From: Eubacteriales bacterium
GTDB lineage: Bacteria; Bacillota; Clostridia; Oscillospirales; SIG627
Reading direction: 5' to 3'
Assembly: GCA_045531285.1 (NCBI GenBank)
Contig: JAZSDT010000083.1
Span: 1-60,841 of the forward strand
Length of the DNA: 60,841 bases
Shown: piece by piece, positions 21,427-40,198 of the stretch
Numbering within the stretch: position 1 is the first letter of the stretch
Layout: each line of letters opens with the position of its first letter
Made by a program: the position numbers and the translations under genes
The notes under the pieces: generated by a model
Seen by the model: only the letters and a program-made list of their open reading frames with translations
Database searches by the model: none
What the model was told of the DNA's origin: nothing

Positions 21427-22299
21427 CTACGGCCTCGCCGTTTTGCATTTTTTTCGGTACTCCCCAGGTGACGTCTTGTATATTCGCATAAAGCATCTGT
21501 AGAAGGTGGAATTGTCATCAAAACCACATTGAGTATATATTTCGGGAATTGTCAGGTCTGTTGAAGCAAGCAGAGATACGGCGGCTTGTATCTGCATTCT
21601 GGTAATATAGCTTTTAGGGCTCTCCCCTGTTGCACAGGTAAATATTTTTCTGAAATAGGACTCACTCATATAGCAAGACTCTGCCATAAGTCTTGTCAAG
21701 GGACGCACTCCGTTTTTCAGCGAAGCCGAAACGTAATTAAGCGCAGGAAGAATGCTCTTGTTCTTTTTATAGTCTACGCTCACACTGTCGTTTTCTCTCT
21801 TATCAAAAGCAAGTCTTTCAAGAAGTTCGGCTGTCTTAAGTACGAGTAAGTCAGCAAGTCTTGTACTTTCGGAGGCTTCCCTAAGAAAAAGCTCGGCAAT
21901 CTCACTTATATTTCTGTGTACAGCTTCATCCTTTGAAAAAACACGGCAGGTATCAAGCTTTTGTGAAAGCTCTATAAAGTATGCACGGTCCAGGCTTACT
22001 CGCAGAGATGACATTGCCGAAACGTCAATGCTGATGAACATCCACAGTGCGTTATCCTTAAGAGCTATATCGTAATGGGGGCAAAAAGGCGGAATGAGCT
22101 GTACGTCGCCTGCGCAATACGGTATCTCTCCCCTGTCCGTATAGCAAATGCCCTCACCCTCCAGACACACGCCAAGCTCCAGTACCTCGTGATAATGGAG
22201 AAATTTCAGCTCTTGCCTCGGCATAGAATACATTGATACCGAATAAAATCCGTTATCAAATCCGCCTACGCCCTCATACAAAACGTTTATATTTTTCAT
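21427..22299 (-). CDS. AraC-family transcriptional regulator
   Basis: C-terminal HTH pair LMAESCYMSESYFRKIFTCATGESPKSY...IPEIYTQCGFDDNSTFYRCFMRIYKTSPGEYR. ATG at 22299 after a GAGGTG RBS (the ORF-track GTG is at 22308). Confidence 0.85.
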   Translation of the reverse strand: MKNINVLYEGVGGFDNGFYSVSMYSMPRQELKFLHYHEVLELGVCLEGEGICYTDRGEIPYCAGDVQLIPPFCPHYDIALKDNALWMFISIDVSAMSSLRVSLDRAYFIELSQKLDTCRVFSKDEAVHRNISEIAELFLREASESTRLADLLVLKTAELLERLAFDKRENDSVSVDYKKNKSILPALNYVSASLKNGVRPLTRLMAESCYMSESYFRKIFTCATGESPKSYITRMQIQAAVSLLASTDLTIPEIYTQCGFDDNSTFYRCFMRIYKTSPGEYRKKCKTARP

Positions 22300-22442
22300 T
22301 CCTACCACCTCTGTAACATACTATACTGTCTTGTAACAAAAAAATCAAGATAAAAAATCAAAAATGCAATATTTTCATCCTTTATGCAATAGACATACGG
22401 TGATATTTTTGATATCATTAAACTTAAAGGAGATGATTTTAA

Positions 22443-24314
22443 ATGGTAAAAAACGTTATAAAAGACATAGAAAACTCACGTATATTCACAAAAGACGAAC
22501 AGCTTTCAATGAAGCTAGAGGGTTCGTTTGAAAAGGCTGTCCGTTTCATCGAGCGTAATCAAATATGCGATGTTGGACTGTGGCAGAAATTTGTAGAGCT
22601 GTTTCGCTGGCACGAGGACGGCTGCGGAGATGCATGGGTCAGCTGGAGAAGTGAATACTGGGGCAAGATGATGCGCAGTGCGGCAATGGTGGTAAAGTAT
22701 ACCAACGATGACGGCATGTACAAAATATTGGAAAACAGCGTAAGAGACCTTTTGACCACTGCCGACAAACACGGCAGAATTTCGGGTTACTCTGTAGAGC
22801 AGGAATTCACACACTGGGATATCTGGGGCAGAAAGTACGTAATGCTCGGTATGTTCTACTTTATGGAGATATGCCGTGACGAAAAGCTCAAAGATGAAAT
22901 GACCTATGCAATCAAGCGTCAGGCTGATTATATGATAGAGCGTATCGGACACGGTAAGCTCGACATAAGAGAGTGCAGTTCAAACTGGGAGGGACTCAAC
23001 TCCTGCTCGGTGTTGGAGCCCATTGTCAGACTGTACAAGCTGACGGGTGAGCAAAAATATTTTGAATTTGCCGAGTATATTATCTCTACAGGCTTTATAC
23101 AGTCTGCGAACATAATAGAGCTTGCATTTGAAGACAAGGTTTCACCTCACGAATATCCCGTCGTAAAGGCATACGAAATGATGTCCTGCTTCGAGGGACT
23201 TTTGCAGTTTTACTACGTTACGGGTATTGAAAAATACAAAACGGCTATTCTCAATTTCGGAAAACGCATTATCAACGGTGAGCTTAGTATAATCGGATGC
23301 AGCGGATGTACTCACGAGCTATTTGACCACACTGCCGTAAGACAGACTCAGACGGACTACGAGGGAGTTATTCAAGAGACCTGTGTAACGGTTACCTGGA
23401 TGAAATTTGCCGCAGCCGTTTTGGAGCTGTCAGGAGACGTAAGCTTTGCCGACTGTATAGAACAGTCCTTCTATAACGCATACGCGGGAAGCTTTAATAC
23501 ACAGAGAATTCCTTCCGTAAGATACCGCGTACCCGACAGGGAGCACATAGTACCTCAGGTACTTCCCTTCGACGCCTACTCACCTCTTGTATCAAACGTA
23601 AGAGGACGTGCTACAGGAGGCTTCAACTACTTCCCTGACGGTACCTTCTACGGATGCTGTGCTTGTATCGGTGGTGCGGGCGCCGGAGTTATTCCTCAGA
23701 TTGCCGTTATGAAAAGCCAAAACGGAATTGTGCTGAATTTCTACGAAAAGGGTATAATAGAAACTAGCGGAATAAAGCTTTGTGTGGATACCGATTATCC
23801 CTACGACGGAAAAATCACCATTGAACTTGAAACGGCTGCGAAAGCCTTTGATATAACTCTGAGAGTGCCTCAATGGTGCGACGGTGCAAGTATCACAGTA
23901 AACGGTCAGTCACAGCCCTGTCACAAGGGATACGTAACTCTTAGCCGTCAGTGGACCGACAAGGACGTCATAGTACTCAATCTGCCAATGGCAGTAAAGC
24001 GTGTTCTTCCTCCCAAAGAAGCTGTAAACTGTGATATCTTTGCAGGGTACACCTACGGACCGCTAGTGCTTGCTGCCGACAAGAGAATAACCGATCCCGA
24101 CGCAATACTGGACGTTGTGGAAGGCACGCAAAAGGCAGTATACTGTCCCGAAATAAGAGAGGCTGAGCTTTGCCTTGAGGTGACACTTGCAAACGGTGAA
24201 AAGGCTCGTCTCATCGACTACGCCTCAGCGGGCAAGACCTGGTCTGAAGAATCCCGTTGCGCTGCTTGGTTAAAAAGGCGGAGAGTCTCCGCAGACAATT
24301 CTCGCCTATCGTAA
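22443..24314 (+). CDS. DUF1680 / GH127-GH146-like glycoside hydrolase (beta-L-arabinofuranosidase-like)
   Basis: 623 aa. QETCVTVTW (E-T-C) and FYGCCACIGG (C-C) resemble the Glu/Cys3 zinc-site and Cys-nucleophile motifs of GH127 HypBA1-type enzymes. The last 12 codons and the stop lie inside a repeat unit. Confidence 0.6.
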   Translation: MVKNVIKDIENSRIFTKDEQLSMKLEGSFEKAVRFIERNQICDVGLWQKFVELFRWHEDGCGDAWVSWRSEYWGKMMRSAAMVVKYTNDDGMYKILENSVRDLLTTADKHGRISGYSVEQEFTHWDIWGRKYVMLGMFYFMEICRDEKLKDEMTYAIKRQADYMIERIGHGKLDIRECSSNWEGLNSCSVLEPIVRLYKLTGEQKYFEFAEYIISTGFIQSANIIELAFEDKVSPHEYPVVKAYEMMSCFEGLLQFYYVTGIEKYKTAILNFGKRIINGELSIIGCSGCTHELFDHTAVRQTQTDYEGVIQETCVTVTWMKFAAAVLELSGDVSFADCIEQSFYNAYAGSFNTQRIPSVRYRVPDREHIVPQVLPFDAYSPLVSNVRGRATGGFNYFPDGTFYGCCACIGGAGAGVIPQIAVMKSQNGIVLNFYEKGIIETSGIKLCVDTDYPYDGKITIELETAAKAFDITLRVPQWCDGASITVNGQSQPCHKGYVTLSRQWTDKDVIVLNLPMAVKRVLPPKEAVNCDIFAGYTYGPLVLAADKRITDPDAILDVVEGTQKAVYCPEIREAELCLEVTLANGEKARLIDYASAGKTWSEESRCAAWLKRRRVSADNSRLS

Positions 24315-24394: not shown

Positions 24395-24423
24395 TTGACA
24401 AAATCAAAAAACGATGCTATAGT
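24395..24423 (+). promoter_or_regulatory. Sigma-A promoter of T-box leader 1
   Basis: TTGACA (24395-24400), 17-nt spacer, TATAGT (24418-24423). Confidence 0.7.
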
Positions 24424-24429
24424 GTATTC

Positions 24430-24705
24430 ATCGAAATATTTAAAGGCTGTGACGAAGACGGTTTTGTCAGGCATTTTACAGAGAGTTGACGTTTGGTGCG
24501 AGTCAATATTTGACCTACAAGGTAACCTATCACTTCCGAGCCGGAATGCTGAACGTATTCAAGTAAGTGTTCCCGTGATTGCTGCGTAAATGCATAGGAA
24601 TTGTTTGATTCCAAGAGTGGCAGGTCTCCTGCAATTTGAGTGGTACCGCGGATGAGTTAATTTCACCCGTCTCAAAGAAAAAGCTTTGAGACGGGTTTAT
24701 TTTTT
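24430..24705 (+). promoter_or_regulatory. T-box riboswitch leader 1, specifier read as AUC (Ile)
   Basis: Stem I with AGAGA bulge and GUUUGGUG distal loop. Specifier loop ...CCU AUC A|CUUC (24529-24531). T-box sequence UUGAGUGGUACCGCGG (about 24636-24651). Terminator CCCGTCTCAAAG/CTTTGAGACGGG (24666-24695) plus T-run. Confidence 0.85.
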
Positions 24706-24722
24706 ACAAGGAGGAACAGAAA

Positions 24723-26987
24723 ATGTCAACAACTTCAAAAACAAAACTTCTGGAGGTAGCGCGCCGAATTCGTGAAATGCGTGAAATCGAAGGAATAAGC
24801 ATTGAAGAAATGGCAGAAAAGACAGAAGTATCTGTCCAGGATTATCTCGAATACGAAGCAGGAAATGCGGATTTCCCCTTCTCCTTTATACACAAATGCT
24901 CACTTGTTTTCGATATTGAAATTACAGATATTCTCGAAGGTAAGAGTGCTAACCTCCGTTCCTATACCATCACACGTAAGGGCGAAGGACAGGACACGGC
25001 AAAGGAAAACGGCATACAGATTCAGAGTCTTGCTCCCAAGTTCAAGGATAAAATAGCTGAGCCGTATTGGGTAAAGTACGAATACGACTCCGAGCTCCAG
25101 GACAAGCCAATAAACGTTACGACACACTCGGGACAGGAATTTGACTACGTGGTGAGCGGACGCCTCAAGATCCAGGTAGGCGACAACATCGAATATCTCA
25201 GCGAAGGCGACAGCATTTACTACAACAGCTCGGAGCCTCACGGCATGATTGCGGTTGACGGTAAGGAGTGTCTCTTTGTCGCAGTAGTACTTCCCGGTGA
25301 AGCAACCGAGGAAACGACTGTCAGAAAGACAATTTCGGCATCGAGTGCAAAATCAGGTCTTGTCAGTGAAAAATTCATCAAATGCGTTGAGGACGAAAAC
25401 GGTTCTCTTGTTTCCATTGACTTTGAAAACGAGGATAAATTCAATTTCGGCTTTGACGTTGTTGATGCAATTGCCAAGAAGGATCCCGGCAAGCTGGCAA
25501 TGATACACATAGACAAAAACAAGGTTGAAAGAAAGTTCACCTTCAACGATATAAAGCGTCATTCAGCTCAGGCGGCAAACTACTTCAAGTCACTTGGCAT
25601 CAAGAAGGGTGACAGAGTAATGCTGGTGCTCAAGCGCCACTATCAGTTCTGGTTTGCCATTGTGGCTCTCCACAAGCTTGGTGCTGTAGCTATCCCTGCT
25701 ACGAATCTGCTTGTAGCTCACGACTTTGATTACCGCTTTAACGCGGCGGGAGTTTCCGCAATCGTCTGCAGCGCCGACGGTCAGATAGCAGAACAGGTAG
25801 ATATTGCTCAGGCGGCAAGCCCCACTCTCAAGACAAAGATACTCGTAGGCGGCAAGAGAGACGGCTGGCACGACTTTGACGAGGAATATTCACTCTTCTC
25901 AACTCACTACTACAGGACCGAAGAAACCGCTTGCGGAGACGATATGATGCTGATGTTCTTCACATCCGGTACAACGGGTTATCCCAAAATTGCGGCTCAT
26001 TCCTACAAATACGCGCTTGGTCACTATCCCACGGCAAAATACTGGCATATGGTAGAGCCTGACGGACTCCACTTTACCATTTCGGACACAGGCTGGGGCA
26101 AGGCTCTCTGGGGCAAGCTCTACGGCCAGTGGCTGTGTGAGGGTGCTGTATTTACATATGACTTCGACCGCTTTGATGCATCGGAGATACTTCCCATGTT
26201 TGCAAAGTACAACATCAAGACCTTCTGTGCTCCGCCCACTATGCTCCGTATGATGATAAAGGAGGACATCTCAAAGTACGACCTTTCATCCGTAAAGCAT
26301 ATGACAACTGCAGGCGAAGCGCTTAATCCCGAGGTTTACTATCAGTTTGAAAAGCTCACGGGACTTCAGATAATGGAGGGCTTTGGTCAGACAGAGCTTA
26401 CTCTCGCCATCGCAAACCTTGTAGGACGTGACCACAAGGTAGGCTCTATGGGACGTCCCGTACCCCTTTATGACGTTGAGATACTTGACTCCGACGGAAA
26501 GCCGGTGCCCAACGGTGAAAACGGAGAAATCTGTGTAAAGATAGGCGACAAGGTTCCTTGCGGTCTCTTCCTTGGTTACTACGGAAACGAGGAAAAGACA
26601 AAGGAGGTCATGCACGACGGTTACTATCATACAGGCGACGTTGCATGGCGCGACGAGGACGGCTTCTTCTGGTACGTTGGAAGAACGGATGACGTTATCA
26701 AATCATCCGGCTACCGTATCGGTCCATTCGAGATAGAAAGCGTAATTATGGAGCTTCCCTACGTTCTGGAGTGCGGTGTATCTGCCGCTCCCGACGAGGT
26801 AAGAGGACAGGTTGTTAAGGCCAGCATCGTGCTTGTCAAGGGCACCGAGCCAACCGAAGAGCTTAAAAAGGAAATTCAGGAGTACGTAAAGAAACACACT
26901 GCTCCCTACAAATATCCCCGTATAGTCGTATTTAAAGATGAGCTTCCCAAGACAATAAGCGGAAAAATTCAAAGAAATAAGCTATAA
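24723..26987 (+). CDS. Fusion protein: XRE-type HTH + cupin domain + AMP-forming medium/short-chain acyl-CoA synthetase
   Basis: 754 aa. N-terminal HTH REIEGISIEEMAEKTEVSVQDYLEYEAG. Cupin HSGQEFDYVVSGRLKIQVGD...GDSIYYNSSEPHGM. Ligase motifs FFTSGTTGYPK, YHTGD, GRTDDVIKSSGYRIGPFEIE, SGKIQR. Confidence 0.85.
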   Translation: MSTTSKTKLLEVARRIREMREIEGISIEEMAEKTEVSVQDYLEYEAGNADFPFSFIHKCSLVFDIEITDILEGKSANLRSYTITRKGEGQDTAKENGIQIQSLAPKFKDKIAEPYWVKYEYDSELQDKPINVTTHSGQEFDYVVSGRLKIQVGDNIEYLSEGDSIYYNSSEPHGMIAVDGKECLFVAVVLPGEATEETTVRKTISASSAKSGLVSEKFIKCVEDENGSLVSIDFENEDKFNFGFDVVDAIAKKDPGKLAMIHIDKNKVERKFTFNDIKRHSAQAANYFKSLGIKKGDRVMLVLKRHYQFWFAIVALHKLGAVAIPATNLLVAHDFDYRFNAAGVSAIVCSADGQIAEQVDIAQAASPTLKTKILVGGKRDGWHDFDEEYSLFSTHYYRTEETACGDDMMLMFFTSGTTGYPKIAAHSYKYALGHYPTAKYWHMVEPDGLHFTISDTGWGKALWGKLYGQWLCEGAVFTYDFDRFDASEILPMFAKYNIKTFCAPPTMLRMMIKEDISKYDLSSVKHMTTAGEALNPEVYYQFEKLTGLQIMEGFGQTELTLAIANLVGRDHKVGSMGRPVPLYDVEILDSDGKPVPNGENGEICVKIGDKVPCGLFLGYYGNEEKTKEVMHDGYYHTGDVAWRDEDGFFWYVGRTDDVIKSSGYRIGPFEIESVIMELPYVLECGVSAAPDEVRGQVVKASIVLVKGTEPTEELKKEIQEYVKKHTAPYKYPRIVVFKDELPKTISGKIQRNKL

Positions 26988-27001: not shown

Positions 27002-27030
27002 TTGACAAACCTCATCTGATATGATATACT
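27002..27030 (+). promoter_or_regulatory. Sigma-A promoter of T-box leader 2
   Basis: TTGACA (27002-27007), 17-nt spacer, TATACT (27025-27030). Confidence 0.7.
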
Positions 27031-27034: not shown

Positions 27035-27307
27035 ATATTCAAGGAAAGGCTTTGACGAAGAGTATACCAGCACATCTATGCTCAGAGAAACGGCGTTTGG
27101 TGTAAGCCGTAGATAGACGTTGGTGTTTGTAGCTTCCGAGCCGAGAGGAAGAAAACGTTTGCCAGTAGACCCTCTCCGTGATTGCTGCGTAAATGCATAG
27201 GAATTGATTGATTCCAAGAGAGGCGGTTAGTCCGCAACTTGAGTGGTACCGCGGGCGTTGTTATTATGCTCGTCTCAAGGATCATATCTTTGGGACGAGC
27301 TTTTATT
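27035..27307 (+). promoter_or_regulatory. T-box riboswitch leader 2, specifier read as GUA (Val)
   Basis: Stem I with CAGAGA bulge and GUUUGGUG distal loop. Specifier loop ...GUUU GUA G|CUUC (27129-27131). T-box CUUGAGUGGUACCGCGG. Terminator GCTCGTCTCAA../..TTGGGACGAGC (27268-27300) plus TTTTATT. Confidence 0.85.
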
Positions 27308-27333
27308 GTCCCGATACAAAACCGGAGGAAATA

Positions 27334-29616
27334 ATGCAACAGATTACAGGTCTTGATTTTAAAATCAAGGAAATGGCAGGGCGTATACGAGAGCTTCGTG
27401 AAATCGTAGGACTTACTACCGAAGAAATGTCAAAGAAAACGGACGTATCCGTACAGGAGTACATAAGCTGTGAAAAGGGAGAAAGCGACCTTACCTTCGC
27501 TTTTATCTACCGTTGCGCTCTTGCACTCAACGTTGACGTTACGGATATTATCGAAGGTCACAGCCCTAAGCTTAAAACCTATACCGTAACAAGAAACGGG
27601 CTTGGTCAGAAAATCGAGCAGGCTCACGGTATGACGTATTACAGTCTTGCTTCCGAGTTCAAAAACAGAATTGCGGAGCCTCTTTACGTACGTGCCGCAT
27701 ACAATGACGATAACAGCGATATTGAGCTTACCACACACGCCGGTCAGGAATGTGACATTATCATTGAAGGTCACCTCAAGGTACAGGTTGGTGAGCACAC
27801 CGAGGTTCTCGGCCCGGGTGACAGTATCTACTATAACAGCTCGGAACCTCACGGTATGATTGCCGTAAACGGTCACGACTGTCTTTTCTACGCAATAGTT
27901 CTTAATCCCACAGGTGAATCCATTCCCGAGCTCATCCCCCATCCCACTGTCACTACCGAAAGACAGCTTCCCCGTGACACAGAGGATAGAGTATACCGCA
28001 ATTTCATTGATACCGAAGAGGATGAAAACGGCACACCTACTTCCATAAAATTCAAGAATACCGAAAAATTCAACTTTGCATTCGACATTGTTGATGCCAT
28101 TGCCGACAAGTCGCCCGACAAACTGGCAATGCTTCACATAGATGTAAACAAGAACGAAAGACGCTTCACTTTCAAGGATATGAAGAAGATGTCTGCTCAG
28201 GCGGCAAACTACTTCAAGTCACTTGGTATCAAGAAGGGCGACAGAGTTATGCTCGTTCTCAAGCGTCACTATCAGTTCTGGATAGCAATGCTTGGTCTTC
28301 ACAAGCTGGGTGCTATTGCGGTGCTTGCGACAAATCAGCTTCAGGAGCATGATTTTGAATATCGCTTTAATGCCGCGGGAATTTCTGCAATCCTCTGCAC
28401 AGCAGACGGAGATACAGCGCATCAGGTTGAGCTGGCAATTGAAAACTCCCCCACAATGAAAACCAAGATAATAGTTGGAAAGGACCGTGAAGGATGGCGC
28501 AACTTTGACGAGGAGCGTTCACTCTTCTCCACACATTTCAACAGAACAGAGGATACTCCCTGCGGAGACGACCTGATGTTGATGTTCTTCACGTCGGGAA
28601 CAACGGGTTATCCCAAGATTGCGGCACACTCCTGCAAGTATGCACTCGGTCATTTCCATACGGCGAAATACTGGCACACAGTTGACCCCGACGGACTTCA
28701 CTTTACCATTTCCGACACGGGATGGGCTAAGTCCATGTGGGGCAAGTTCTACGGACAGTGGGTATGCGAGGCGGCAACCTTCGTTTATGACTTTGACCGC
28801 TTTGACGCTGCCGATATTCTGCCAATGTTTGCAAAATATCAGATAACAACCTTCTGTGCTCCTCCCACAATGCTTCGTATGATGATAAAAGAGGACATTT
28901 CAAAATACGACCTCTCTTCCGTTAAGCATATGACAACAGCAGGTGAAGCACTGAACCCCGAAGTATATAACCAATTTGAAAGGCTGACAGGACTTCAGAT
29001 ACTTGAAGGCTTCGGTCAGACAGAAAGCACTATGATAATAGGCAACCTTGTAGGAACGTCACACAAGGTCGGCTCTATGGGTAAGCCTGCTCCCATTTAC
29101 GACGTGGAGCTTCTTGATGCAGACGGTAATCCCGTCAAGGACGGTGAAAACGGAGAAATCTGCGTAAACGTTAAGAACGGCGCTCCTTGCGGTCTGTTCA
29201 CGGGTTATTATCTCAACGAGGAAAAAACACGCGAGGTATGGCACGACGGATATTACCACACAGGTGACGTTGCATGGCGTGATGAGGACGGCTTCTACTG
29301 GTACGTCAGCCGTGTTGACGACGTTATCAAGTCATCGGGCTACCGTATCGGTCCTTTCGAAATAGAAAGCGTAATAATGGAGCTTCCCTACGTTCTGGAG
29401 TGCGGTGTATCTGCGGCTCCCGACGAGGTAAGAGGACAGGTAGTCAAGGCGGGCATCGTGCTTGTTAGGGGAACCGAGCCTACTGAAGAGCTTAAAAAGG
29501 AGATACAGAACTACGTTAAGAGCAGAACTGCTCCCTACAAGTATCCCAGAATCGTAGTGTTCAAGGATTCTCTTCCCAAGACTGTCAGCGGAAAGATCCA
29601 GAGGAACAAATTATAA
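27334..29616 (+). CDS. Fusion protein paralog: XRE-type HTH + cupin + AMP-forming acyl-CoA synthetase
   Basis: 760 aa from the ATG at 27334 (GGAGG RBS; the ORF-track start at 27208 lies inside the riboswitch). Same architecture and motifs as 24723..26987. The ligase part is highly similar. Confidence 0.85.
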   Translation: MQQITGLDFKIKEMAGRIRELREIVGLTTEEMSKKTDVSVQEYISCEKGESDLTFAFIYRCALALNVDVTDIIEGHSPKLKTYTVTRNGLGQKIEQAHGMTYYSLASEFKNRIAEPLYVRAAYNDDNSDIELTTHAGQECDIIIEGHLKVQVGEHTEVLGPGDSIYYNSSEPHGMIAVNGHDCLFYAIVLNPTGESIPELIPHPTVTTERQLPRDTEDRVYRNFIDTEEDENGTPTSIKFKNTEKFNFAFDIVDAIADKSPDKLAMLHIDVNKNERRFTFKDMKKMSAQAANYFKSLGIKKGDRVMLVLKRHYQFWIAMLGLHKLGAIAVLATNQLQEHDFEYRFNAAGISAILCTADGDTAHQVELAIENSPTMKTKIIVGKDREGWRNFDEERSLFSTHFNRTEDTPCGDDLMLMFFTSGTTGYPKIAAHSCKYALGHFHTAKYWHTVDPDGLHFTISDTGWAKSMWGKFYGQWVCEAATFVYDFDRFDAADILPMFAKYQITTFCAPPTMLRMMIKEDISKYDLSSVKHMTTAGEALNPEVYNQFERLTGLQILEGFGQTESTMIIGNLVGTSHKVGSMGKPAPIYDVELLDADGNPVKDGENGEICVNVKNGAPCGLFTGYYLNEEKTREVWHDGYYHTGDVAWRDEDGFYWYVSRVDDVIKSSGYRIGPFEIESVIMELPYVLECGVSAAPDEVRGQVVKAGIVLVRGTEPTEELKKEIQNYVKSRTAPYKYPRIVVFKDSLPKTVSGKIQRNKL

Positions 29617-30278
29617 TGAAATATAAAAGAATAACGCTTCTTTCAGGTCATTACGGAAGCGGAAAGACAAATATAGCGGTCAACATGGCATTTGAGCTGA
29701 AGCAACAGGTTGAAAGCGTTGTGGTTGCCGATATGGATATAGTCAATCCCTATTTTCGTACAAAGGACAGTCAAAAGGAGTTTGATGAGGCAGGAATAAA
29801 GCTTATTGCATCCGCCTTTGCAGGCTCTAACGTAGACCTGCCCTCTCTTCCCCAAGAGATGTACTCACTGACAGATGACCGCACAAGCCACTGCATACTT
29901 GATATAGGTGGTGATGAACGCGGAGCGTTGGTGCTTGGAAGATATGCGCCTATGATAAAGGAAGAAAACGATTACGAAATGCTTTTCGTTTTCAATGCCT
30001 GCCGTCCCTTGACACCGGATGCCGACTCGGCACTGGAGGTTATGAGAGAAATTGAATGGGCAGGAAAGATACCCTTCACAGGTATCATAAACAACTCAAA
30101 CATCGGAGAGGAAACAACTCCCGAGACAGTTTTGTCATCAATGGAAAAAGCAAACCAGCTGAGTCAAAAAGCCGGTATTCCATTGGTTATGACCTCGGTT
30201 CATTGGAAGATATTTCCCTCCCTTGAAAATAAAATACCAAATCTATTCCCATTAAAACTTCAAACAAAAATCATGTAA
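29616..30278 (+). CDS. P-loop NTPase (SIMIBI class; CooC/MinD/G3E-like ATP/GTP-binding protein)
   Basis: Walker A LLSGHYGSGKTN, Walker-B-like ILDIGGD. 220 aa. Start overlaps the ligase stop (TAATG). Confidence 0.6.
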   Translation: MKYKRITLLSGHYGSGKTNIAVNMAFELKQQVESVVVADMDIVNPYFRTKDSQKEFDEAGIKLIASAFAGSNVDLPSLPQEMYSLTDDRTSHCILDIGGDERGALVLGRYAPMIKEENDYEMLFVFNACRPLTPDADSALEVMREIEWAGKIPFTGIINNSNIGEETTPETVLSSMEKANQLSQKAGIPLVMTSVHWKIFPSLENKIPNLFPLKLQTKIM

Positions 30279-30290: not shown

Positions 30291-30497
30291 ATGCCTAAGC
30301 TTACTTTTAAAACAGACAACTGTAAGGGCTGTGGACTTTGCGTAGATGCTTGTCCCAAGGGCGTTCTTGCAATTGCCAAGGAAAAAATCAACAAAAAAGG
30401 TCATCACCCTGTTGAAGCGGTGAAAGAGGACGCTTGTATCGGTTGTACCTTCTGTGCTACCATGTGTCCCGACTGTATAATCAAGATTGAGAAATAG
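30291..30497 (+). CDS. 2-oxoacid:ferredoxin oxidoreductase delta subunit (2x[4Fe-4S] ferredoxin)
   Basis: CKGCGLCVDACP and CIGCTFCATMCP cluster motifs. 68 aa. Confidence 0.85.
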   Translation: MPKLTFKTDNCKGCGLCVDACPKGVLAIAKEKINKKGHHPVEAVKEDACIGCTFCATMCPDCIIKIEK

Positions 30498-30512: not shown

Positions 30513-31580
30513 ATGGCAGATAAAGTATTGATGAAAGGTAACGAAGCCATTGCCGAAGCCGCAATCGTTGCAGGCTGCCGCCACTACTTCGGTTACCCTA
30601 TTACTCCCCAAACTGAAATTGCCGCTTACATGGCTAAGAGAATGCCTAAAATCGGCGGTTGCTTCCTTCAGGCTGAAAGCGAAATTGCCGCTATCAACAT
30701 GGTATACGGCGTTGCTTCCTGCGGTAAGCGTGTTATGACATCATCCTCAAGCCCCGGAATCTCACTTAAGGGCGAAGGACTTTCCTACCTTGCAGGTGCG
30801 GACCTTCCCTCCCTTGTTGTAAACGTACAGAGAGGCGGCCCCGGTCTGGGCGGTATTCAGCCCTCGCAGTCAGACTACTTCCAGGCTACAAAGGGCGGAG
30901 CACACGGTGATTTCCACATGATAGTTCTTGCTCCCGCTTCCGTTCAGGAAATGGCTGACCTCACAGTTCACGGCTTTGACCTTGCAGACAAGTACCGTAT
31001 GACTTCCATGATACTTGCCGACGGTACAATGGGTCAGATGATGGAGCCTGTTTCTCTTGACCTTGACGTTAAGCCCATGCCCGAAAAGCCTTGGGCTACA
31101 GTGGGAACAAAGCTCGAAAGATTCCACAATATCACAAACTCACTTTCTCTTGTTCCCGAAGAGCTTGAACAGCTCAACTTCAAGAGATACGAGCGTTATG
31201 CTGAAATAGAAAAGAATGAAGTTATGTACGAAGAGTATATGATGGAGGATGCAGAGATCTGTATCGCCGCATTCGGCATTGCTTCACGTGTTGCCAAGAA
31301 CGCTATCGTTGAGGCTCGTGCTCAGGGTATCAAGGTAGGTCTTATACGTCCTATCACCCTTTGGCCCTTCCCCAAGGCTCCCTTCCTCAAGGCGACCGAA
31401 AAGGTACATTCATTTATTTCTGTTGAGCTTTCTATGGGTCAGATGATAGAGGACGTACGTCTTGCTACAGAGTGCCGCCGTCCCGTGACACTTGTAAACC
31501 GTGCAGGCGGTATGATCCCCTCACCCGAACAGATCCTCGAAGCAATTAAAACTGCTCACAAAAACGGAGGTGCAAAATAA
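30513..31580 (+). CDS. 2-oxoacid:ferredoxin oxidoreductase alpha subunit (VorB-like, ketoisovalerate-type)
   Basis: KVLMKGNEAIAEAAIVAGCRHYFGYPITPQTEI is the N-terminal signature of the POR/VOR/KOR alpha family. 355 aa. Confidence 0.85.
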   Translation: MADKVLMKGNEAIAEAAIVAGCRHYFGYPITPQTEIAAYMAKRMPKIGGCFLQAESEIAAINMVYGVASCGKRVMTSSSSPGISLKGEGLSYLAGADLPSLVVNVQRGGPGLGGIQPSQSDYFQATKGGAHGDFHMIVLAPASVQEMADLTVHGFDLADKYRMTSMILADGTMGQMMEPVSLDLDVKPMPEKPWATVGTKLERFHNITNSLSLVPEELEQLNFKRYERYAEIEKNEVMYEEYMMEDAEICIAAFGIASRVAKNAIVEARAQGIKVGLIRPITLWPFPKAPFLKATEKVHSFISVELSMGQMIEDVRLATECRRPVTLVNRAGGMIPSPEQILEAIKTAHKNGGAK

Positions 31581-32347
31581 TGGTAGTATTTGACAAACCC
31601 CATGCACTTGCCGACCTTCCCATGCACTACTGCCCCGGCTGTACACACGGTATTATTCACCGTCTTGTTGCCGAGTGTCTTGATGAACTTGGAATTGAAG
31701 GAAGAACCATCGGTATCGCACCCGTTGGTTGCTCGGTTATGGCATATAATTATTTCAACTGCGATATGATTGAAGCGGCTCACGGACGTGCTCCTGCCAT
31801 TGCTACAGGTGTTAAGCGTGCTGACCCCGAAAATCACATAGTATTTACATATCAGGGCGACGGTGACCTTGCCTCTATTGGTATGGCAGAAACCGTACAC
31901 GCAGCAGCGCGTAACGAGAACATCACCGTTATCTTTGTAAACAATGCAATCTACGGTATGACTGGCGGTCAGATGGCTCCTACCTCACTTCCCGGTCAGG
32001 TTACTCAGACCTCTCCCTACGGACGTGACACCAACCACTGCGGATTCCCAATCAAGGTATGCGAAATGCTCTCTGAGCTTGACGGACCTGAATATCTGGA
32101 AAGAGTTGCCGTGAACAACGTGAAGAATGTTAAGGCTGCTAAGAAGGCTATTAAGAAGGCGTTTGAAAACCAGATAAACAATAAGGGCTTCTCACTCATC
32201 GAGGTTATTTCAAGCTGTCCTACAAACTGGGGTATGACACCTCAAAAGGCACTTGAATGGGTTGCAGATAAAATGATTCCCTACTATCCTCTCGGTGTAT
32301 ATAAGGATAGAACAGCGGGCATTGTAAAGGGGGATAAAAATGACTAA
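31580..32347 (+). CDS. 2-oxoacid:ferredoxin oxidoreductase beta subunit (TPP-binding)
   Basis: YCPGCTHG, GDGD...NNAIYGMTGGQ TPP/Mg motif. Start overlaps the alpha stop. Confidence 0.85.
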   Translation: MVVFDKPHALADLPMHYCPGCTHGIIHRLVAECLDELGIEGRTIGIAPVGCSVMAYNYFNCDMIEAAHGRAPAIATGVKRADPENHIVFTYQGDGDLASIGMAETVHAAARNENITVIFVNNAIYGMTGGQMAPTSLPGQVTQTSPYGRDTNHCGFPIKVCEMLSELDGPEYLERVAVNNVKNVKAAKKAIKKAFENQINNKGFSLIEVISSCPTNWGMTPQKALEWVADKMIPYYPLGVYKDRTAGIVKGDKND

Positions 32348-32870
32348 TCAGTACGTTTTTGCAGGATTTGGCGGTCAGGGTATCCTTTTCGCAGGTAAGC
32401 TCCTTGCATACAAGGGTCTGACAGAGGACAAGCAGGTTTCATGGCTTCCCTCCTACGGTCCCGAAATGAGAGGCGGTACGGCAAGCTGTTCCGTTATCAT
32501 CAGCGACACACCTGTAGGTTCTCCCATTGTTTCCAATCCCGACATACTCATCGCTATGAACCTTCCTTCTCTTGACAAGTACGAGAATCTTGTAAAGGCA
32601 GGCGGTATGATATTCTACGATTCTTCTCTCATTGAAAGAGAAGTTAAAAGAGATGACGTAAAGGCGTTCCCCATTCCCGCAACAAAGCTTGCAGACGAGA
32701 ACGGAACTCCCACACTTGCAAACATGATAATCATGGGTAAGGTGCTCAAGGAGACAGGCGACTTCACAGACGAAGGCGTTCTTGCAGCTCTCAAGAAGGT
32801 AATTTCCGCTAAGCGTGCGGATATGCTTGACGTAAACCTTAACGCTATGAAACTTGGACGCGATTATTAA
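32340..32870 (+). CDS. 2-oxoacid:ferredoxin oxidoreductase gamma subunit
   Basis: [17 protein letters not shown]...[11 protein letters not shown] is typical of gamma subunits. 8-nt overlap with beta. Confidence 0.85.
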
Positions 32871-32886: not shown

Positions 32887-33951
32887 ATGGAAATTTCAAT
32901 CACTCGCGCAAAGGAGCTCAAGGCTAAGCCTGACAGTTCCACACTTGGCTTCGGTAAAATATTCACCGACCATATGTTCATAATGGACTATTCGCAGGAG
33001 AAAGGCTGGCACGATGCAAGAATCGTTCCCTTCGGCCCCTTCCCCATTCATCCCGCATCAACCGTTCTTCACTACGGCTCGGAAATCTTTGAAGGACTCA
33101 AGGCATACAGAATCGCCGACGGCTCGGTACAGCTCTTCAGACCTATGGAGAACATCCGCCGTCTTAACAGCTCGGCTGAGCGTCTGTGTCTCCCCGAGAT
33201 TCCCGAGGACCTTGCTCTTGAGGTACTCACAAAGTTCGTTGAATTTGAAAAGGACTGGACACCTGCTGCAGAGGGTACTTCTCTCTACATCCGTCCCTTC
33301 CTCTTCGGTAACGACGAGACACTTGGTGTACACGCAGTACACAATGCAACCTTTATGATAATCCTCTCTCCTGTAGGAAGCTACTATAAGGAAGGTATTA
33401 ACCCTGTTAAGATCATGATTGAAGCTGATGACGTAAGAGCTGTAAGAGGCGGTACAGGTTACACCAAGTGCGGCGGTAACTATGCGGCAAGTAACAGAGC
33501 AGGTCAGAAGGCTGAAGCTCAGGGATACGCTCAGGTACTCTGGCTTGACGGTGTTGAAAGAAAGTATATTGAAGAAGTTGGCGCCATGAACGTTATGTTC
33601 AAAATCAACGGCGAGATCGTTACTCCCATGCTTTCAGGCTCTATCCTTCCCGGTATCACAAGAAAGTCTTGCATTGAAGTTCTCAAGTCCGAGGGCTACA
33701 AGGTAAGCGAGAGACTTCTCAGCGTTGATGAGCTTGCAGAGGCTCTTGAAAACGGAACTCTTGAAGAGGCTTGGGGAACAGGTACAGCAGCAGTTGTATC
33801 GCCCATTGGCGAGCTTGCTTACAAGGGCAAGAAGTTCATCATCAACGAAGGTAAGATCGGCGAGGTCACTCAGCATCTTTACGATACTCTCACAGGCATC
33901 CAGTGGGGTAAGATCGAAGACAAGTTCAACTGGACCTACAAGCTTAATTAA
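32887..33951 (+). CDS. ilvE: Branched-chain amino acid aminotransferase (fold type IV)
   Basis: 354 aa. FGKIFTDHMF, LHYGSEIFEGLKAYR, GGTGYTKCGGNYAAS, ILPGITR and GTAAVVSPI motifs of IlvE type II. Confidence 0.9.
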   Translation: MEISITRAKELKAKPDSSTLGFGKIFTDHMFIMDYSQEKGWHDARIVPFGPFPIHPASTVLHYGSEIFEGLKAYRIADGSVQLFRPMENIRRLNSSAERLCLPEIPEDLALEVLTKFVEFEKDWTPAAEGTSLYIRPFLFGNDETLGVHAVHNATFMIILSPVGSYYKEGINPVKIMIEADDVRAVRGGTGYTKCGGNYAASNRAGQKAEAQGYAQVLWLDGVERKYIEEVGAMNVMFKINGEIVTPMLSGSILPGITRKSCIEVLKSEGYKVSERLLSVDELAEALENGTLEEAWGTGTAAVVSPIGELAYKGKKFIINEGKIGEVTQHLYDTLTGIQWGKIEDKFNWTYKLN

Positions 33952-36043: not shown

Positions 36044-36324
36044 TCATCAAAAATAGAACGAAATGCATTGAAGGAATTATCGCTTTTCCCTATTCCGTCA
36101 AAGAGAGCCGAGTTTGGTGTGAGTCGGTACGGTAAGCTAAAGTGAGTCTCGTTCCGGAGCAGGGTCGCCCAACGTGCTATGCACTGCGTAAGCGATCACG
36201 GTTTGTCCCGTTACCTTGACAGAAAGCTTGATTGAGCTTTACAGAGTGACTGCATAAGCAGTAATTCGGGGTGGTACCGCGAAGTATTTTCGTCCCCTTA
36301 GCCGAAAGGCTGAGGGGTTTTTTG
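36044..36324 (+). promoter_or_regulatory. T-box riboswitch leader 3, specifier read as CUC (Leu)
   Basis: Stem I with AAGAGAG bulge and GUUUGGUG distal loop. Specifier loop ...GAGU CUC G|UUCC (36148-36150). T-box AUUCGGGGUGGUACCGCGAAG. Terminator CCCCTTAGCC-GAAA-GGCTGAGGGG (36294-36317) plus TTTTTT. Confidence 0.85.
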
Positions 36325-36354
36325 TTGCATAAATTCAGAAAGGGAAAAAGAAAA

Positions 36355-37743
36355 ATGAAAAAAATCCAAATCACAGACATCACACTTAAAAAACTGGCGC
36401 AAGAGCGTAGCGTTAACCTTCTTTTCCGTGACAAGACCGCTATCGCCGCATGTGCTGACAGGCTTGGAGTTGATGCTATTGAACTTGCACCCATAAAGAA
36501 CGTGCGTGAGGACACTATCATTTATAAGACAATATCCCAAAATATCACCAACTGTACCGTAGCTATCCCCGTAGGATTTACTGCTCAGGACGTTGCGACA
36601 GCATGGGAATGCGTAAAGGACGCCATTCACCCCAGACTTCAAATAGAGCTTCCCATATCCACTGTTCAAATGGAATATACCTATCATCTTAAGGCTGACA
36701 AAATGATTGCCAAGATAGGTGAGCTGGTAGAGGAAGCAGTAAAATACTGCAATGACGTTGAATTCGTTGCTCTTGACGCTACAAGAGCGGACACAGACTT
36801 CCTTGTTGCCGCAGTAAAAGAAGCAGAAACAAAGGGCGCAAATATCATAACGGTTTGCGATGATGCGGGAGTTTCTCTTCCGGAAGAAATTGCAGCACTT
36901 GTAAAGCTTGTAAAAGATGCTGTTGATATCTACGTATACGCTCAGGTATCCGACAAGCTCAGTATGGCTGTTTCCTCTGCAGTATCCGCAATCAACGCAG
37001 GTGCAGAAGGTCTCAAGTGTGCTATGGCAGGCAATGAAGCTCTTTTGGTAGGTGCTTTCTCTGACACTGTAAGAGCAAGAGGAGATGCTATCGACGTTTC
37101 TACGTCTCTTAAGGACACCAAAATTCACGCAAGCATCGATGACCTGCTTACTTCTATAAAGCACGAAGCTTATACCTCGGAAGAACAGGTAAGCGAAAAG
37201 AAAAACATTCTTCTCGATAAGGACAGCACCATATCACAGGTATCTCAGGCGGCTCAGGTATTGGGCTATGACCTTTCGGACAGCGACTGCGGAAACGTGC
37301 ACAAGGCACTTCTTCAGGTATGCGAAAAGAAGGGCTCTGTAGGATCAAAGGAGTTTGAAGCACTTATTGCAAGCTCTGCAATGCAGGCTCCCTCCACATA
37401 TCACCTTGAGGGCTACACTACAAATTCTTCAAATCTTACACCCTCTATGTCTCAAGTAACCCTCAGATGCGGTGACGAGATACTTTCAGGCGTAAGCACA
37501 GGTGACGGTCCCATCGATTCAGCCTTCCGCGCTATCGAGCAGAGTATAGGTTATCACTACGAGCTTGACGACTTCCAGGTACAGGCGGTTACAGAGGGCA
37601 AGGAGGCTCTCGGCTCTGCACTGGTAAGACTCCGTAACAACGGCAAGCTCTATTCAGGTAACGGCATCTCCACAGATATTGTTGCCGCAAGTATAAGAGC
37701 ATACATCAACGCACTTAACAAGATCGTATTCGAGGAGGAATAA
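36355..37743 (+). CDS. 2-isopropylmalate/citramalate-synthase-like protein with degenerate active site but intact LeuA-type C-terminal regulatory domain
   Basis: Collinear with LeuA over the whole length, but DTTLRDGEQ is DITLKKLAQ and the HxH metal motif (H-C-H-D-D) is AQVSD. The C-terminal STGDGPIDSAFRAIEQSI...ALVRLRNNGKLYSGNGISTDIVAASIRAYINALNK is well conserved. ATG at 36355 lies downstream of the riboswitch terminator. Confidence 0.75.
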   Translation: MKKIQITDITLKKLAQERSVNLLFRDKTAIAACADRLGVDAIELAPIKNVREDTIIYKTISQNITNCTVAIPVGFTAQDVATAWECVKDAIHPRLQIELPISTVQMEYTYHLKADKMIAKIGELVEEAVKYCNDVEFVALDATRADTDFLVAAVKEAETKGANIITVCDDAGVSLPEEIAALVKLVKDAVDIYVYAQVSDKLSMAVSSAVSAINAGAEGLKCAMAGNEALLVGAFSDTVRARGDAIDVSTSLKDTKIHASIDDLLTSIKHEAYTSEEQVSEKKNILLDKDSTISQVSQAAQVLGYDLSDSDCGNVHKALLQVCEKKGSVGSKEFEALIASSAMQAPSTYHLEGYTTNSSNLTPSMSQVTLRCGDEILSGVSTGDGPIDSAFRAIEQSIGYHYELDDFQVQAVTEGKEALGSALVRLRNNGKLYSGNGISTDIVAASIRAYINALNKIVFEEE

Positions 37744-37744
37744 A

Positions 37745-40198
37745 ATGAAGCTGGTATTTTCCACCGAAAACGTAAGCAGAGCATCCTTTATTGACCTTTG
37801 CCGCTACGCTTACGATTACGGTTATTCGGGATTTGAGATATACGATGCCATAAAGGAAAGAAAACAGCATTATGACAGCATTCTCAGAAGCGGAAACACT
37901 TCGGATGCCAAACGAAAGCTGTTAAACCGTAATCTCACAGTTCCCGCTCTCACTTTCCCCTCCCCTATAGACAGTAGCGAAGTATCCTCCGAGGATATAA
38001 CAAAATATATCGACATGGCTGCAACGGCAGGTGTGGAAAACGTTATTGTATGCGTAAAAGAAGATATTTCTCACGATACCCTTTCTGCCAAGCTTAGCGA
38101 TGCACTCAAGGCTGCTGCAAAATCCGATATACAGATTTTGTTTGAAACGTGGGGCATTCTTGCTGACACGGAAAAGGTACTTGAGGTAATCAATTTCCTG
38201 TCATCCGCCTCGGTAGGCGTAGCATGGAACGTACGTGAAACCTTTTTCAAAGCAAGCGAAAGTGCCGAAACGACCATAAAAAATCTTGGCGCTTATATAA
38301 AATACACCCGTTTGGGCGATATGAAGGACAATAAGACGGTTCTCATCGGAGAAGGTGAGCTTCCTGTTGGCAATTTCATAAACGCGCTGTCATCACTGAA
38401 CTTTGACGGATGTATCTGCGTTGCATGGAACGAGGAAATAAACGATGCTGACATCGTATTAACTCATTTTTCAAACTATATTGCAAATCTCAACCGTAAG
38501 AAATTAAAAGCCGACAGCTCTTATTACAACAGAGCAAAAACAGGTACTTTCCCTTGGAAGAAATATGATATTCTCGATTATACCTTCTCGGACGTACTTG
38601 ATGCAATGGTAAAGAATTACCCCGACCAGTATGCCTTCAAGTATACGACTCTTGATTATACGAGAACCTACACCGAATTCCGCAGAGACGTTGACGAGTG
38701 TGCGGCGGCACTGATATCACTGGGCGTAAAGGCAGGCGATCACGTTGCTATTTGGGCGACAAACGTTCCTGCATGGTATATCACCTTCTGGGCAACAACA
38801 AAGATCGGCGCAGTACTTGTTACTGTCAACACAGCGTACAAAATACACGAAATAGAGTATCTGCTCAAGCAGTCTGACACTCATACTCTTGTAATGATAG
38901 AGGACTGCAAGGACATAAACTACAAGGAAATAATTGAGGAGCTCTGTCCCGAGCTTCAGCACCTTGAACCGGGTCAGCCTATTTATTCAAAGAGTCTTCC
39001 CTTCCTCCGAAACGTTGTTACCGTAGGCTTTTCAATGAAGGGCTGTCTCACTTGGGAGGAAATGCTCAAGCGTTCTGAGCTTGTTCCAAAAGAAGAGGTA
39101 CGCAGACGTGCATCTCTGGTAAATCCCGACGACGTATGCAATATGCAGTACACCTCGGGTACTACAGGCTTCCCCAAGGGAGTTATGCTTACCCATCGCA
39201 ATATCGTAAACAACGGTAAGACGATCGGAGACAGAATGGACTTGTCCACTGCCGACAGAATGATGATTCAAGTACCTATGTTCCATTGCTTCGGAATGGT
39301 GCTTTCTATGACATCTATGATGACACACGGCGGTACTCTTTGTCCTATGCCTTATTTCTCCCCCAAATCATCTCTTGCTTGTATAAACGATGAGCACATC
39401 ACCTGCTTCAACGGTGTGCCTACAATGTTTATCGCGCTGTTCAATCATTCGGATTTTGCAAAAACCGACTTCTCTTATATGAGAACGGGCATTATGGCAG
39501 GTGCCAACTGTCCTGCAGATCTTATGCGCCGTGCGGCAGACGAAATGAATATGCGTGAAATAATATCCGTTTACGGTCAGACCGAGGCATCTCCGGGATG
39601 TACGATGGGCGAAGTAAACGAGGATATCGACCACAGAGTTGAGACAGTAGGAAGCGCCTTCCCCGGAGTTGAGTGTAAAATTATTGACCCTGAGACAGGC
39701 GACGAGCTTCCCGACGGTGAATCCGGTGAGTTTGTGGCACGCGGCTTTAACATTATGAAGGGTTACTATAAGATGCCCGAGGCTACTGCACAGACTATTG
39801 ACGCAGACGGATGGCTTCATTCAGGTGACATTTGCTGCCGTACGCCCGACGGCTACTACAAGGTAACAGGACGTCTTAAGGATATGATAATCCGAGGCGG
39901 TGAAAACCTTTATCCCCGTGAAATTGAGGAGTTCTATCTTACCAATCCCAAGGTACGTGACGTACAGGTGGTAGGTGTTCCCGACGAAAGATACGGTGAA
40001 GAATGCTGTGCGTGGATAATTCTTCACAAGGGCGAGACTGCCGACGAAAACGAAATGAAGGAATACGGAAACGCTTCTATCGCACGTCACAAGGTTCCCC
40101 GTTACTTCCTGTTCGTAGATGAGTTCCCCATGAATGCGGCAGGAAAAATTCTTAAATATAAAATGAGAGATATTTCAAAAGAAAAATTAGGTCTTTAA
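37745..40198 (+). CDS. Fusion protein: xylose-isomerase-like TIM-barrel domain + AMP-forming acyl-CoA synthetase (FadD/YngI-like)
   Basis: 817 aa. The first ~260 aa have the TIM-barrel pattern (GFEIY...ILFETWG...VAWNVRE...CVAWNEE). The remainder carries YTSGTTGFPKGVMLTHRN, GQTE, HSGD, GRLKDMIIRGGENLYPREIE, AGKILK. Starts 1 nt after the upstream stop. Confidence 0.8.
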   Translation: MKLVFSTENVSRASFIDLCRYAYDYGYSGFEIYDAIKERKQHYDSILRSGNTSDAKRKLLNRNLTVPALTFPSPIDSSEVSSEDITKYIDMAATAGVENVIVCVKEDISHDTLSAKLSDALKAAAKSDIQILFETWGILADTEKVLEVINFLSSASVGVAWNVRETFFKASESAETTIKNLGAYIKYTRLGDMKDNKTVLIGEGELPVGNFINALSSLNFDGCICVAWNEEINDADIVLTHFSNYIANLNRKKLKADSSYYNRAKTGTFPWKKYDILDYTFSDVLDAMVKNYPDQYAFKYTTLDYTRTYTEFRRDVDECAAALISLGVKAGDHVAIWATNVPAWYITFWATTKIGAVLVTVNTAYKIHEIEYLLKQSDTHTLVMIEDCKDINYKEIIEELCPELQHLEPGQPIYSKSLPFLRNVVTVGFSMKGCLTWEEMLKRSELVPKEEVRRRASLVNPDDVCNMQYTSGTTGFPKGVMLTHRNIVNNGKTIGDRMDLSTADRMMIQVPMFHCFGMVLSMTSMMTHGGTLCPMPYFSPKSSLACINDEHITCFNGVPTMFIALFNHSDFAKTDFSYMRTGIMAGANCPADLMRRAADEMNMREIISVYGQTEASPGCTMGEVNEDIDHRVETVGSAFPGVECKIIDPETGDELPDGESGEFVARGFNIMKGYYKMPEATAQTIDADGWLHSGDICCRTPDGYYKVTGRLKDMIIRGGENLYPREIEEFYLTNPKVRDVQVVGVPDERYGEECCAWIILHKGETADENEMKEYGNASIARHKVPRYFLFVDEFPMNAAGKILKYKMRDISKEKLGL

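Follow-up and report, generated by a model that had tools for sequence, protein, structure and literature searches.

The characterised stand-alone proteins that join an XRE-type helix-turn-helix (HTH) to a cupin domain are local repressors of adjacent enzyme genes and bind palindromes as dimers (PMC7901475). Here we analysed a stretch of 60,841 nucleotides (nt) from Eubacteriales bacterium (Oscillospirales; assembly GCA_045531285.1, contig JAZSDT010000083.1, positions 1 to 60,841), hereafter the window, in which an HTH-cupin module is fused to an adenylate-forming acyl-CoA ligase in one open reading frame (ORF A) and again in a neighbouring paralogue (ORF B). The HTH-cupin module is dedicated to this family of ligases and accompanies them in three arrangements: as an N-terminal fusion, as a C-terminal fusion and as an adjacent upstream gene. 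That the module is a metal- or ligand-sensing regulatory unit acting on the ligase at the protein level is a reading for which we consider the case evenly balanced.

The XRE-cupin factors (PuuR, ErfA, PsdR, PauR; structure 1Y9Q) resemble the module in their two-domain layout, their size and their enzyme-gene neighbour (PMC7901475). The module differs from them in the acidic contact surfaces of its HTH, in that no palindromic operator was found in 103 orthologous promoters, and in being either fused to the ligase or encoded on the same strand directly upstream of it (at most 48 nt away, or overlapping) instead of by a separate regulator gene. The fosfomycin epoxidases HppE and Psf4 also consist of an HTH-like alpha domain and a cupin, and the His/Glu/His residues of HppE align with those of the module; unlike the module, they are stand-alone tetrameric enzymes that carry out oxidative chemistry in a phosphonate antibiotic context. 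The genes of the present operon encode ligase, Vor and IlvE proteins, and no phosphonate genes are among them. In HppE, reportedly since the 2005 work of Higgins et al., the XRE-like HTH and the cupin function without DNA binding and the HTH-like domain is structural, which makes it a precedent for a two-domain unit of this kind working without DNA.

BirA, PutA and NadR, like ORFs A and B, carry a metabolic enzyme and an HTH-type domain in one chain, and BirA also makes an acyl-adenylate. BirA has a winged HTH, a class II aminoacyl-tRNA synthetase-like catalytic fold and a defined bio operator. ORFs A and B have an ANL ligase where BirA has its biotin-protein-ligase fold, an XRE-type HTH and, as far as the orthologous promoters go, no operator; they are not homologous to BirA, and the likeness drawn in the initial annotation of the window is an analogy at most. 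The ANL ligase FadD1 of P. aeruginosa has a reported regulatory role and responds to fatty-acid ligands (PMC12754631). It differs from A and B in having no added domain, its DNA binding being ascribed to an internal leucine-zipper-like motif, and it belongs to a different ligase subfamily and biological context. MacS and MbcS share the ANL core motifs and ligase-domain similarity with A and B but are proteins of about 525-580 amino acids (aa) without the HTH-cupin module; MbcS feeds branched-chain fatty-acid synthesis, whereas the context of A and B is amino-acid synthesis under T-box control. IlvN with its ACT domain and the C-terminal domain of LeuA offer a functional analogy, in which a first committed, energy-consuming enzyme is served by a fused or separate ligand-binding module, although the fold there is ACT and not cupin plus HTH, and allostery in A and B is only proposed.

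Full-text literature searches on the fusion and its pathway found no paper that describes an HTH-cupin-ligase fusion. Ligase, T-box and XRE-cupin fold each belong to known kinds; their obligate combination, and the probable role of the module away from DNA, are not described in the literature searched.

Architecture and distribution of the fusion

The two fused genes and the parts of the first are as follows.

24723-26987, plus strand: ORF A, fusion of the HTH-cupin module with an acyl-CoA synthetase predicted to act on branched short-chain acids, 754 aa in an uninterrupted frame
24747..24941, plus strand: XRE-type five-helix HTH subdomain of A, aa 9-73 (Pfam HTH_19/HTH_3; helices of the AlphaFold2 (AF2) model)
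25014..25292, plus strand: cupin beta-barrel of A, aa 98-190 (Pfam Cupin_2), with invariant H135, E139 and H173
25293..25367, plus strand: linker of A, aa 191-215, with variable alignment columns and low model confidence
25368..26984, plus strand: ANL-superfamily ligase domain of A, aa 216-754 (Pfam; match to PDB 3etc)
27334-29616, plus strand: ORF B, paralogue with the same four domains in one frame, 760 aa, ribosome-binding site GGAGG

The ATG of ORF A is preceded by AAGGAGG. A Pfam scan of its 754-codon frame assigned HTH_19 to aa 14-74 (2.9e-8; HTH_3 was also assigned), Cupin_2 to aa 134-188 (7.8e-11), AMP-binding to aa 250-620 (5.2e-63) and AMP-binding_C to aa 670-748 (1.1e-20), which bears out the XRE-HTH, cupin and ligase that the initial annotation had read in one continuous ORF. 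The paralogue that it placed at 27334-29616 proved to carry the same four domains (AMP-binding 1.5e-66, AMP-binding_C 2.8e-19) and to be 70% identical to ORF A. A longer frame for ORF B, from a TTG at 27208, was dismissed as the true start because it begins within the T-box leader of the gene.

The best 120 clusters of a protein search were all of 754-756 aa, with the same domains and 80-100% identity, and came from metagenome-assembled genomes (MAGs) of Clostridia, Ruminococcaceae or Acutalibacteraceae. In a survey of one genome per species, in which the full-length fusion was aligned and the best 80 of at least 600 matches were examined, all 80 loci aligned across essentially the whole 754 aa and are therefore N-terminally fused. 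These loci are from MAGs of Acutalibacteraceae, Ruminococcaceae, Oscillospiraceae and Christensenellaceae; most of the MAGs come from the guts of ruminants and other animals, and some from the human gut. The continuous frame and the identical architecture in more than 120 clusters and 80 species loci rule out an assembly or frameshift artefact, the case in which, according to the initial annotation, the N-terminal part would turn out to be a separate gene. The same survey, which the annotation had itself proposed, also qualifies its description of the fusion as unusual: this holds for biochemistry, where none has been characterised, and does not hold at the level of genomes, since many gut Oscillospirales commonly encode the fusion. 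The names on the clusters go no further than 'AMP-binding protein', 'acyl-CoA synthetase' or 'cupin domain-containing protein'. Proteins of the subfamily are now annotated as transcriptional regulators or just as 'AMP-binding protein', and both labels may mislead.

The module also occurs by itself. A search of aa 1-215 against 1.84 billion representative proteins gave 77 matches below 1e-30, fused and stand-alone, the latter including many proteins of 183-196 aa with 33-46% identity. Stand-alone homologues of Anaerotruncus, Ligaoa and others are encoded 0-5 nt 5' of a ligase of 551-552 aa that is 54-58% identical to the ligase domain of A, and the identical arrangement upstream of a ligase is seen for a homologue of 39% identity that belongs to another lineage. 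In a metagenome scan we collected 82 stand-alone module genes of related Oscillospirales (170-203 aa; the loci were not de-replicated by species). At 76 of the 77 stand-alone loci with readable downstream sequence, a ligase gene followed in the same orientation, after a gap of no more than about 48 nt or with an overlap; the exceptions to this adjacency are L135 and L092. Three loci among the split-type matches (L165, L173 and L174) hold fused forms of 757 aa, which indicates that fusion or fission happened more than once. The reverse order (AMP-binding, AMP-binding_C, HTH, cupin) was found in a small clade made up of P0390 (755 aa), P0398 and P0244, from three independent sources. Such reverse fusions have 745-755 aa, and at L087 (965-3232, GCA_031550185.1) a second, unfused ligase comes next. 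Most other ligase homologues, of about 550 aa, as well as MacS and MbcS, have no module, from which we conclude that the module is an accessory and unnecessary for catalysis.

A tandem of fused genes (769 and 758 aa), followed by a class I/II aminotransferase gene, is present at L088 (2111-6769, GCA_024712465.1). The second of them, P0157, is degenerate in its ligase motifs, with QSYSYG for TSGTTG, TGT for TGD and NGV for SGK, and retains both the HTH-cupin module and the cupin triad. Possible roles for it are those of a pseudo-enzyme sensor and of a partner in a heterodimer.

The HTH surface and the cupin site

Conservation in the module was measured over 125 sequences, which include both the Ile and the Val paralogues. 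Positions of the HTH where DNA contacts would be expected are largely acidic, the fractions of acidic and basic residues being 0.52/0.04 at position 28, 0.69/0.06 at 29, 0.70/0.00 at 39, 0.71/0.02 at 40 and 0.94/0.00 at 50. These positions fall at the start of helix 2, in the putative recognition helix (aa 37-45 of A, SVQDYLEYE) and in the loop after it. Across 118 sequences the segment helix 2-turn-helix 3-loop carries a net charge of -2 to -8, whereas the corresponding segment of E. coli PuuR has a charge of 0, and the acidity is alike in fused, split, T-box-bearing and T-box-less forms. On helix 2, helix 3 and the loop, where an XRE-cupin regulator would contact DNA through polar or basic residues, the module is thus 52-94% acidic and at most 6% basic.

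Helix 4 of the HTH (positions 50-59) follows the pattern D-[FL]-x-F-x-F-[IL]-x-[KR]-C, with D50 in 94%, F53 in 94%, F55 in 100% and C59 in 98% of the sequences. We judge this to be far above what is usual for XRE domains, as far as we know them, and the helix is a candidate surface for contacts between proteins. Positions 94-96, where the cupin begins, are a near-invariant K-R-R in the stand-alone forms and K/Q, E/A and H/D in the fused ones; K-R-R may form an interface or touch nucleic acid, a contact that would be dispensable once the module is fused.

The AF2 model of the N-terminal module alone has a predicted local distance difference test (pLDDT) of 88.8, and the HTH of A is modelled with helices at 6-23, 27-33, 38-45, 53-62 and 67-72 (pLDDT 80-98). 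The XRE-cupin regulator 1y9q came out on top of the fold matches, with HppE, Psf4, HEPD and MPnS equally good (probability 1.0 for HppE/Psf4). H135, G137, Q138, E139, G146, G162, D163, S169, H173 and G174 are invariant in the 125 sequences. A profile of the family could be aligned with HppE along the whole of both subdomains (1zz6; aa 8-184 to HppE 11-196, E=2e-6), and in this alignment H135, E139 and H173 fall on the His/Glu/His of HppE, a 2-His-1-Glu metal site.

This alignment, with the conserved triad, the place of HppE, Psf4, HEPD and MPnS among the best fold matches and the invariance of many polar residues near the metal site, would fit a catalytic cupin, that is, a mononuclear-metal enzyme of the HppE/Psf4 type that carries out an extra step on the fatty acid, the acyl-adenylate or the acyl-CoA. 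We regard this as highly improbable, since the identity to HppE is just 17-19%, and the bona fide regulator PuuR shows the same His/Glu/His pattern in its cupin (at 14-19% identity to the module), so that the triad is no proof of catalysis. Furthermore, the salvage route set out below requires no additional reaction between fatty acid and amino acid, and cupin chemistry that depends on O2 or H2O2 seems unlikely in hosts that are gut anaerobes.

The full-length AF2 model, built from an alignment of 22 sequences, has confident domains, a predicted TM-score of 0.60 and a linker with pLDDT below 50 at aa 193-207. No solved structure spans the fusion in a PDB fold comparison. A flexible linker suits tethering, and cupins and XRE domains are common dimerisation units, so the module might be a scaffold or oligomerisation element, free of any regulation by a ligand, that dimerises the ligase or docks it to the oxidoreductase or the P-loop protein for acyl-CoA channelling; alternatively it might be a structural leftover of a repressor. 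Such docking would fit the strict synteny of the ligase with the P-loop, ferredoxin and Vor genes at many loci, and also L093, where the module gene adjoins divergent P-loop, ferredoxin and Vor genes. However, vor genes are absent nearby at many split and fused ligase loci, and the His/Glu/His with its polar neighbours (Q138, D141, D163 and S169) is invariant over deep divergence, which points to a selected binding site beyond the needs of a scaffold. We therefore take the scaffold to be quite improbable.

Operator search and proposed action at the protein level

The promoters and leaders of the two ligase genes are the following.

24395..24423, plus strand: promoter of ligase A, TTGACA at 24395-24400, 17-nt spacer, TATAGT at 24418-24423 (read from the sequence)
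24440..24706, plus strand: T-box leader A (24440-24677) with terminator hairpin and T-run (Rfam RF00230, 94.6 bits, above the gathering score)
27002..27030, plus strand: promoter of ligase B, TTGACA at 27002-27007, 17-nt spacer, TATACT at 27025-27030 (read from the sequence)
27043..27310, plus strand: T-box leader B (27043-27280) with terminator (RF00230, E=2.6e-17; at 81.2 bits it falls short of the gathering score, which is 93)

An A/T-rich, UP-like tract lies 5' of the ligase A promoter, and the near-consensus promoter layout, typical of a strong constitutive promoter, is shared by 103 orthologous loci. The T-box core motif was found 5' of 113 of the 125 orthologous genes that could be tested. 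The predicted specifier is AUC (Ile) in leader A, in the context AUC-A-CUUCCGAGC that recurs in 27 first-copy orthologous leaders, and GUA (Val) in leader B, with the context GUA/GUC-purine-CUUC in 33 second-copy leaders.

The 103 orthologous promoters were anchored on their -35 and -10 elements and examined for positional information and for dyads of 4- and 5-mers with spacers of 0-14 nt. Information was present only in the UP-like A/T tracts, TTGACA, the extended -10 TGnTATAAT and the +1 region; the 17-nt spacer was uninformative. No operator or palindrome beyond the sigma-A elements was found in the 103 promoters, where dyads were enriched only as pairs of a T-tract and an A-tract, and the initial remark that no operator had been identified holds for this whole set. 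As XRE-cupin repressors bind palindromes by their own genes, an operator should have been visible. About two dozen T-box-less split loci had no shared motif, and several of these pairs lie inside larger operons without a promoter of their own.

The BirA-like DNA-binding repressor of the initial annotation is not supported by these data: no operator was detected in the 103 promoters, the contact faces of the HTH are acidic, and the module accompanies the ligase in three arrangements. Its broader idea of a second layer of control on top of the T-box holds up, and of the two forms proposed for it, DNA binding is made unlikely by the missing operator and the acidic HTH, and allosteric control is the favoured one. 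A protein-level partner is favoured because the pairing is obligate, in three arrangements and at enzyme-level expression; because a promoter without operator stands before a riboswitch that already sets transcription; and because an acidic HTH is combined with an invariant metal or ligand site.

The HTH-cupin module would then act at the protein level, on the ligase itself. The 2-His-1-Glu site of the cupin would bind a metal, a small metabolite or both, the HTH would serve as a dimerisation or docking surface without reading DNA, and the module would tune or gate ligase activity, a fast post-translational layer beneath the slower T-box layer. A more specific version, in which an XRE-cupin module now senses a metabolite in a metal-dependent manner and exerts allosteric control over an acyl-CoA synthetase, either as a domain or as a small subunit, is possible but falls somewhat short of probable. 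If true, it would give gut anaerobes fast feedback on the salvage of fatty acids to amino acids on top of T-box attenuation and would represent, to our knowledge, both a dedicated allosteric domain of a type not described before for ANL ligases and a case in which the XRE-cupin fold regulates without involving DNA. The entry enzyme of this operon is nearly always paired with a dedicated sensor-like module; should the module regulate the ligase, this would be a new mode of control for adenylate-forming enzymes and a handle on the balance that the abundant Oscillospirales of the gut strike between scavenging fatty acids and synthesis de novo.

Several observations weigh against action at the protein level. 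There is no confident docking of the module on the ligase in the AF2 model from 22 sequences. The idea that the cupin senses the end product (Ile or Val) lost ground, as both paralogues have the same invariant residues in the pocket and the positions that set them apart are found outside it, which argues against simple end-product specificity and for a shared ligand or a shared chelating moiety. As a matter of speculation, the alpha-keto-acid or alpha-amino-acid head group, CoA, a nucleotide or just a metal would be candidates. A gene that adjoins its target is also what one expects of a repressor, and the characterised stand-alone XRE-cupin proteins are indeed repressors of adjacent genes, as described above. 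The HTH fold is strongly conserved and so must have some role, even if its acidity makes DNA binding unlikely. The degenerate P0157, with its module kept, suits a sensor or regulator protein better than a pure modulator of the enzyme. Finally, some T-box-less split loci have short inverted repeats (5-9 bp) over their promoters, which differ between loci and could be lineage-specific operators or chance. At L001 (5940-5985) GGTTC-TG-GAACC is found just past the -10, in L164/L172 AATAAA-N3-TTTATT lies over the -10, and others are at L136 and L171.

Much of this would also suit a trigger enzyme, in which the fused protein is both ligase and DNA-binding factor and the cupin ligand or the catalytic state alters binding to operators of its own operon or elsewhere, for example at de novo ilv genes or fatty-acid uptake genes. 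If the module does bind DNA, a new trigger enzyme would be at hand. Pfam places the HTH in XRE families and its five-helix fold is canonical, yet in both fused and split forms helix 2, helix 3 and the next loop are acidic and nearly devoid of basic residues. The top fold match, 1y9q, is an XRE-cupin regulator, and the characterised members of that group are dimeric on palindromes as local repressors (PMC7901475), but the 103 orthologous promoters have neither a conserved palindrome nor an extra conserved position. The promoter-overlapping inverted repeats at L001, L136, L171 and L164/L172 fit operators of such an enzyme; they are mutually different and short enough for chance, and several split pairs within larger operons have no promoter for a repressor to act on. 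An acyl-CoA ligase has been reported as a transcription factor, FadD1 of P. aeruginosa (PMC12754631). P0157, which carries the module despite its catalytic degeneration, and the K-R-R, conserved in stand-alone forms and lost in fused ones, keep the transcription-factor reading alive. Against this, the tight same-strand spacing or fusion would make the 'repressor' in enzyme-level amounts, and the fusion is also found at the opposite end of the ligase. On balance we consider a trigger enzyme unlikely.

Ligase identity, pathway and operon

The ligase motifs of A are intact (FTSGTTGYPK, YHTGD, GYRIGPFEIES and SGKIQR). The ANL core motifs, that is, TSGTTGxPK, YxTGD, the GYRxG hinge and the C-terminal catalytic Lys in SGK, are present in both A and B, and the catalytic motifs are intact in 116 of 123 orthologous fused ligase domains. 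The closest protein of known structure was MacS of Methanosarcina acetivorans (PDB 3etc; E=1.3e-182, 49% identity), which Foldseek matched as well (E=6e-60, TM-score 0.80 normalised to the target); this enzyme is said to prefer 2-methylbutyrate. The top NCBIfam model for both ligases was MbcS (NF047394), with 437 bits for A and 431 bits for B against a cut-off of 850, so A and B are related to MbcS and are a different equivalog. MbcS is described as acting on short branched acids (PMC10026030, PMC11167679).

The genes that follow the two ligases are:

29616..30278, plus strand: P-loop CbiA/Mrp-like NTPase, a conserved operon member
30291..30497, plus strand: VorD-like ferredoxin, 2x[4Fe-4S], 68 aa, below the 80-aa minimum of the ORF list
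30513-31580, plus strand: VorB of 2-oxoisovalerate:ferredoxin oxidoreductase (VorB model, 536 bits against a cut-off of 399)
31580-32347, plus strand: thiamine pyrophosphate (TPP) beta subunit of the oxidoreductase (Pfam)
32340-32870, plus strand: gamma subunit of the oxidoreductase (Pfam)
32887..33951, plus strand: IlvE, branched-chain amino acid aminotransferase (NCBIfam PRK13357, 482 bits against a cut-off of 307)

The order ligase(s), P-loop, ferredoxin, VorBAC and IlvE is kept in dozens of species, with one or two fused ligases first, and the P-loop and ferredoxin genes lie between the ligases and vorB at nearly all loci. The P-loop NTPase may be an Fe-S carrier for the oxidoreductase or a maturation or service protein of it. 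From the specifiers, the VorBAC/IlvE context and the homologues, A is most likely the activator of 2-methylbutyrate (Ile specifier) and B that of isobutyrate (Val specifier). In the predicted salvage route A and B would convert the fatty acid to acyl-CoA with consumption of ATP, VorABCD would carboxylate it reductively to the 2-oxo acid, and IlvE would yield Ile or Val; A would be on when tRNA-Ile is uncharged, and B when tRNA-Val is. We infer the anabolic direction, as we do the substrates. A catabolic direction was rejected because AMP-forming ligases drive acyl-CoA formation and T-box genes are induced by amino-acid starvation, both of which favour synthesis. That rumen and gut anaerobes form Ile, Val and Leu by reductively carboxylating branched short-chain fatty acids is a long-known fact of their physiology, for which the genes and their control are poorly described; this locus offers a complete conserved gene set with amino-acid-specific T-box switches.

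A homologous ligase of 632 aa from a Methanosarcinales MAG, P0465, carries ferredoxin (Fer4) domains, which is a further gene-fusion link of this ligase family to ferredoxin-dependent 2-oxoacid chemistry. The genes directly upstream of ORF A, at 21427-24314, encode a GH127 beta-L-arabinofuranosidase-like protein and, on the minus strand, a regulator of the AraC family that has a cupin domain of its own; they appear unrelated to the ligase operon.

The region 36059-40198 of the window contains a third T-box (102.8 bits) with a predicted Leu specifier (CUC). The next gene is LeuA-like (36271-37743; HMGL-like and LeuA_dimer domains, below the cut-offs of isopropylmalate synthase models), after which an 817-aa fusion of a xylose-isomerase-like TIM barrel and a PRK12583-type acyl-CoA ligase is encoded at 37745-40198. 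Ile, Val and Leu T-boxes thus each precede a ligase with an extra N-terminal domain. More than 20 of the best 80 species loci also have a ligase gene of about 25% identity at a distance of 1-3 kb from their HTH-cupin ligase.

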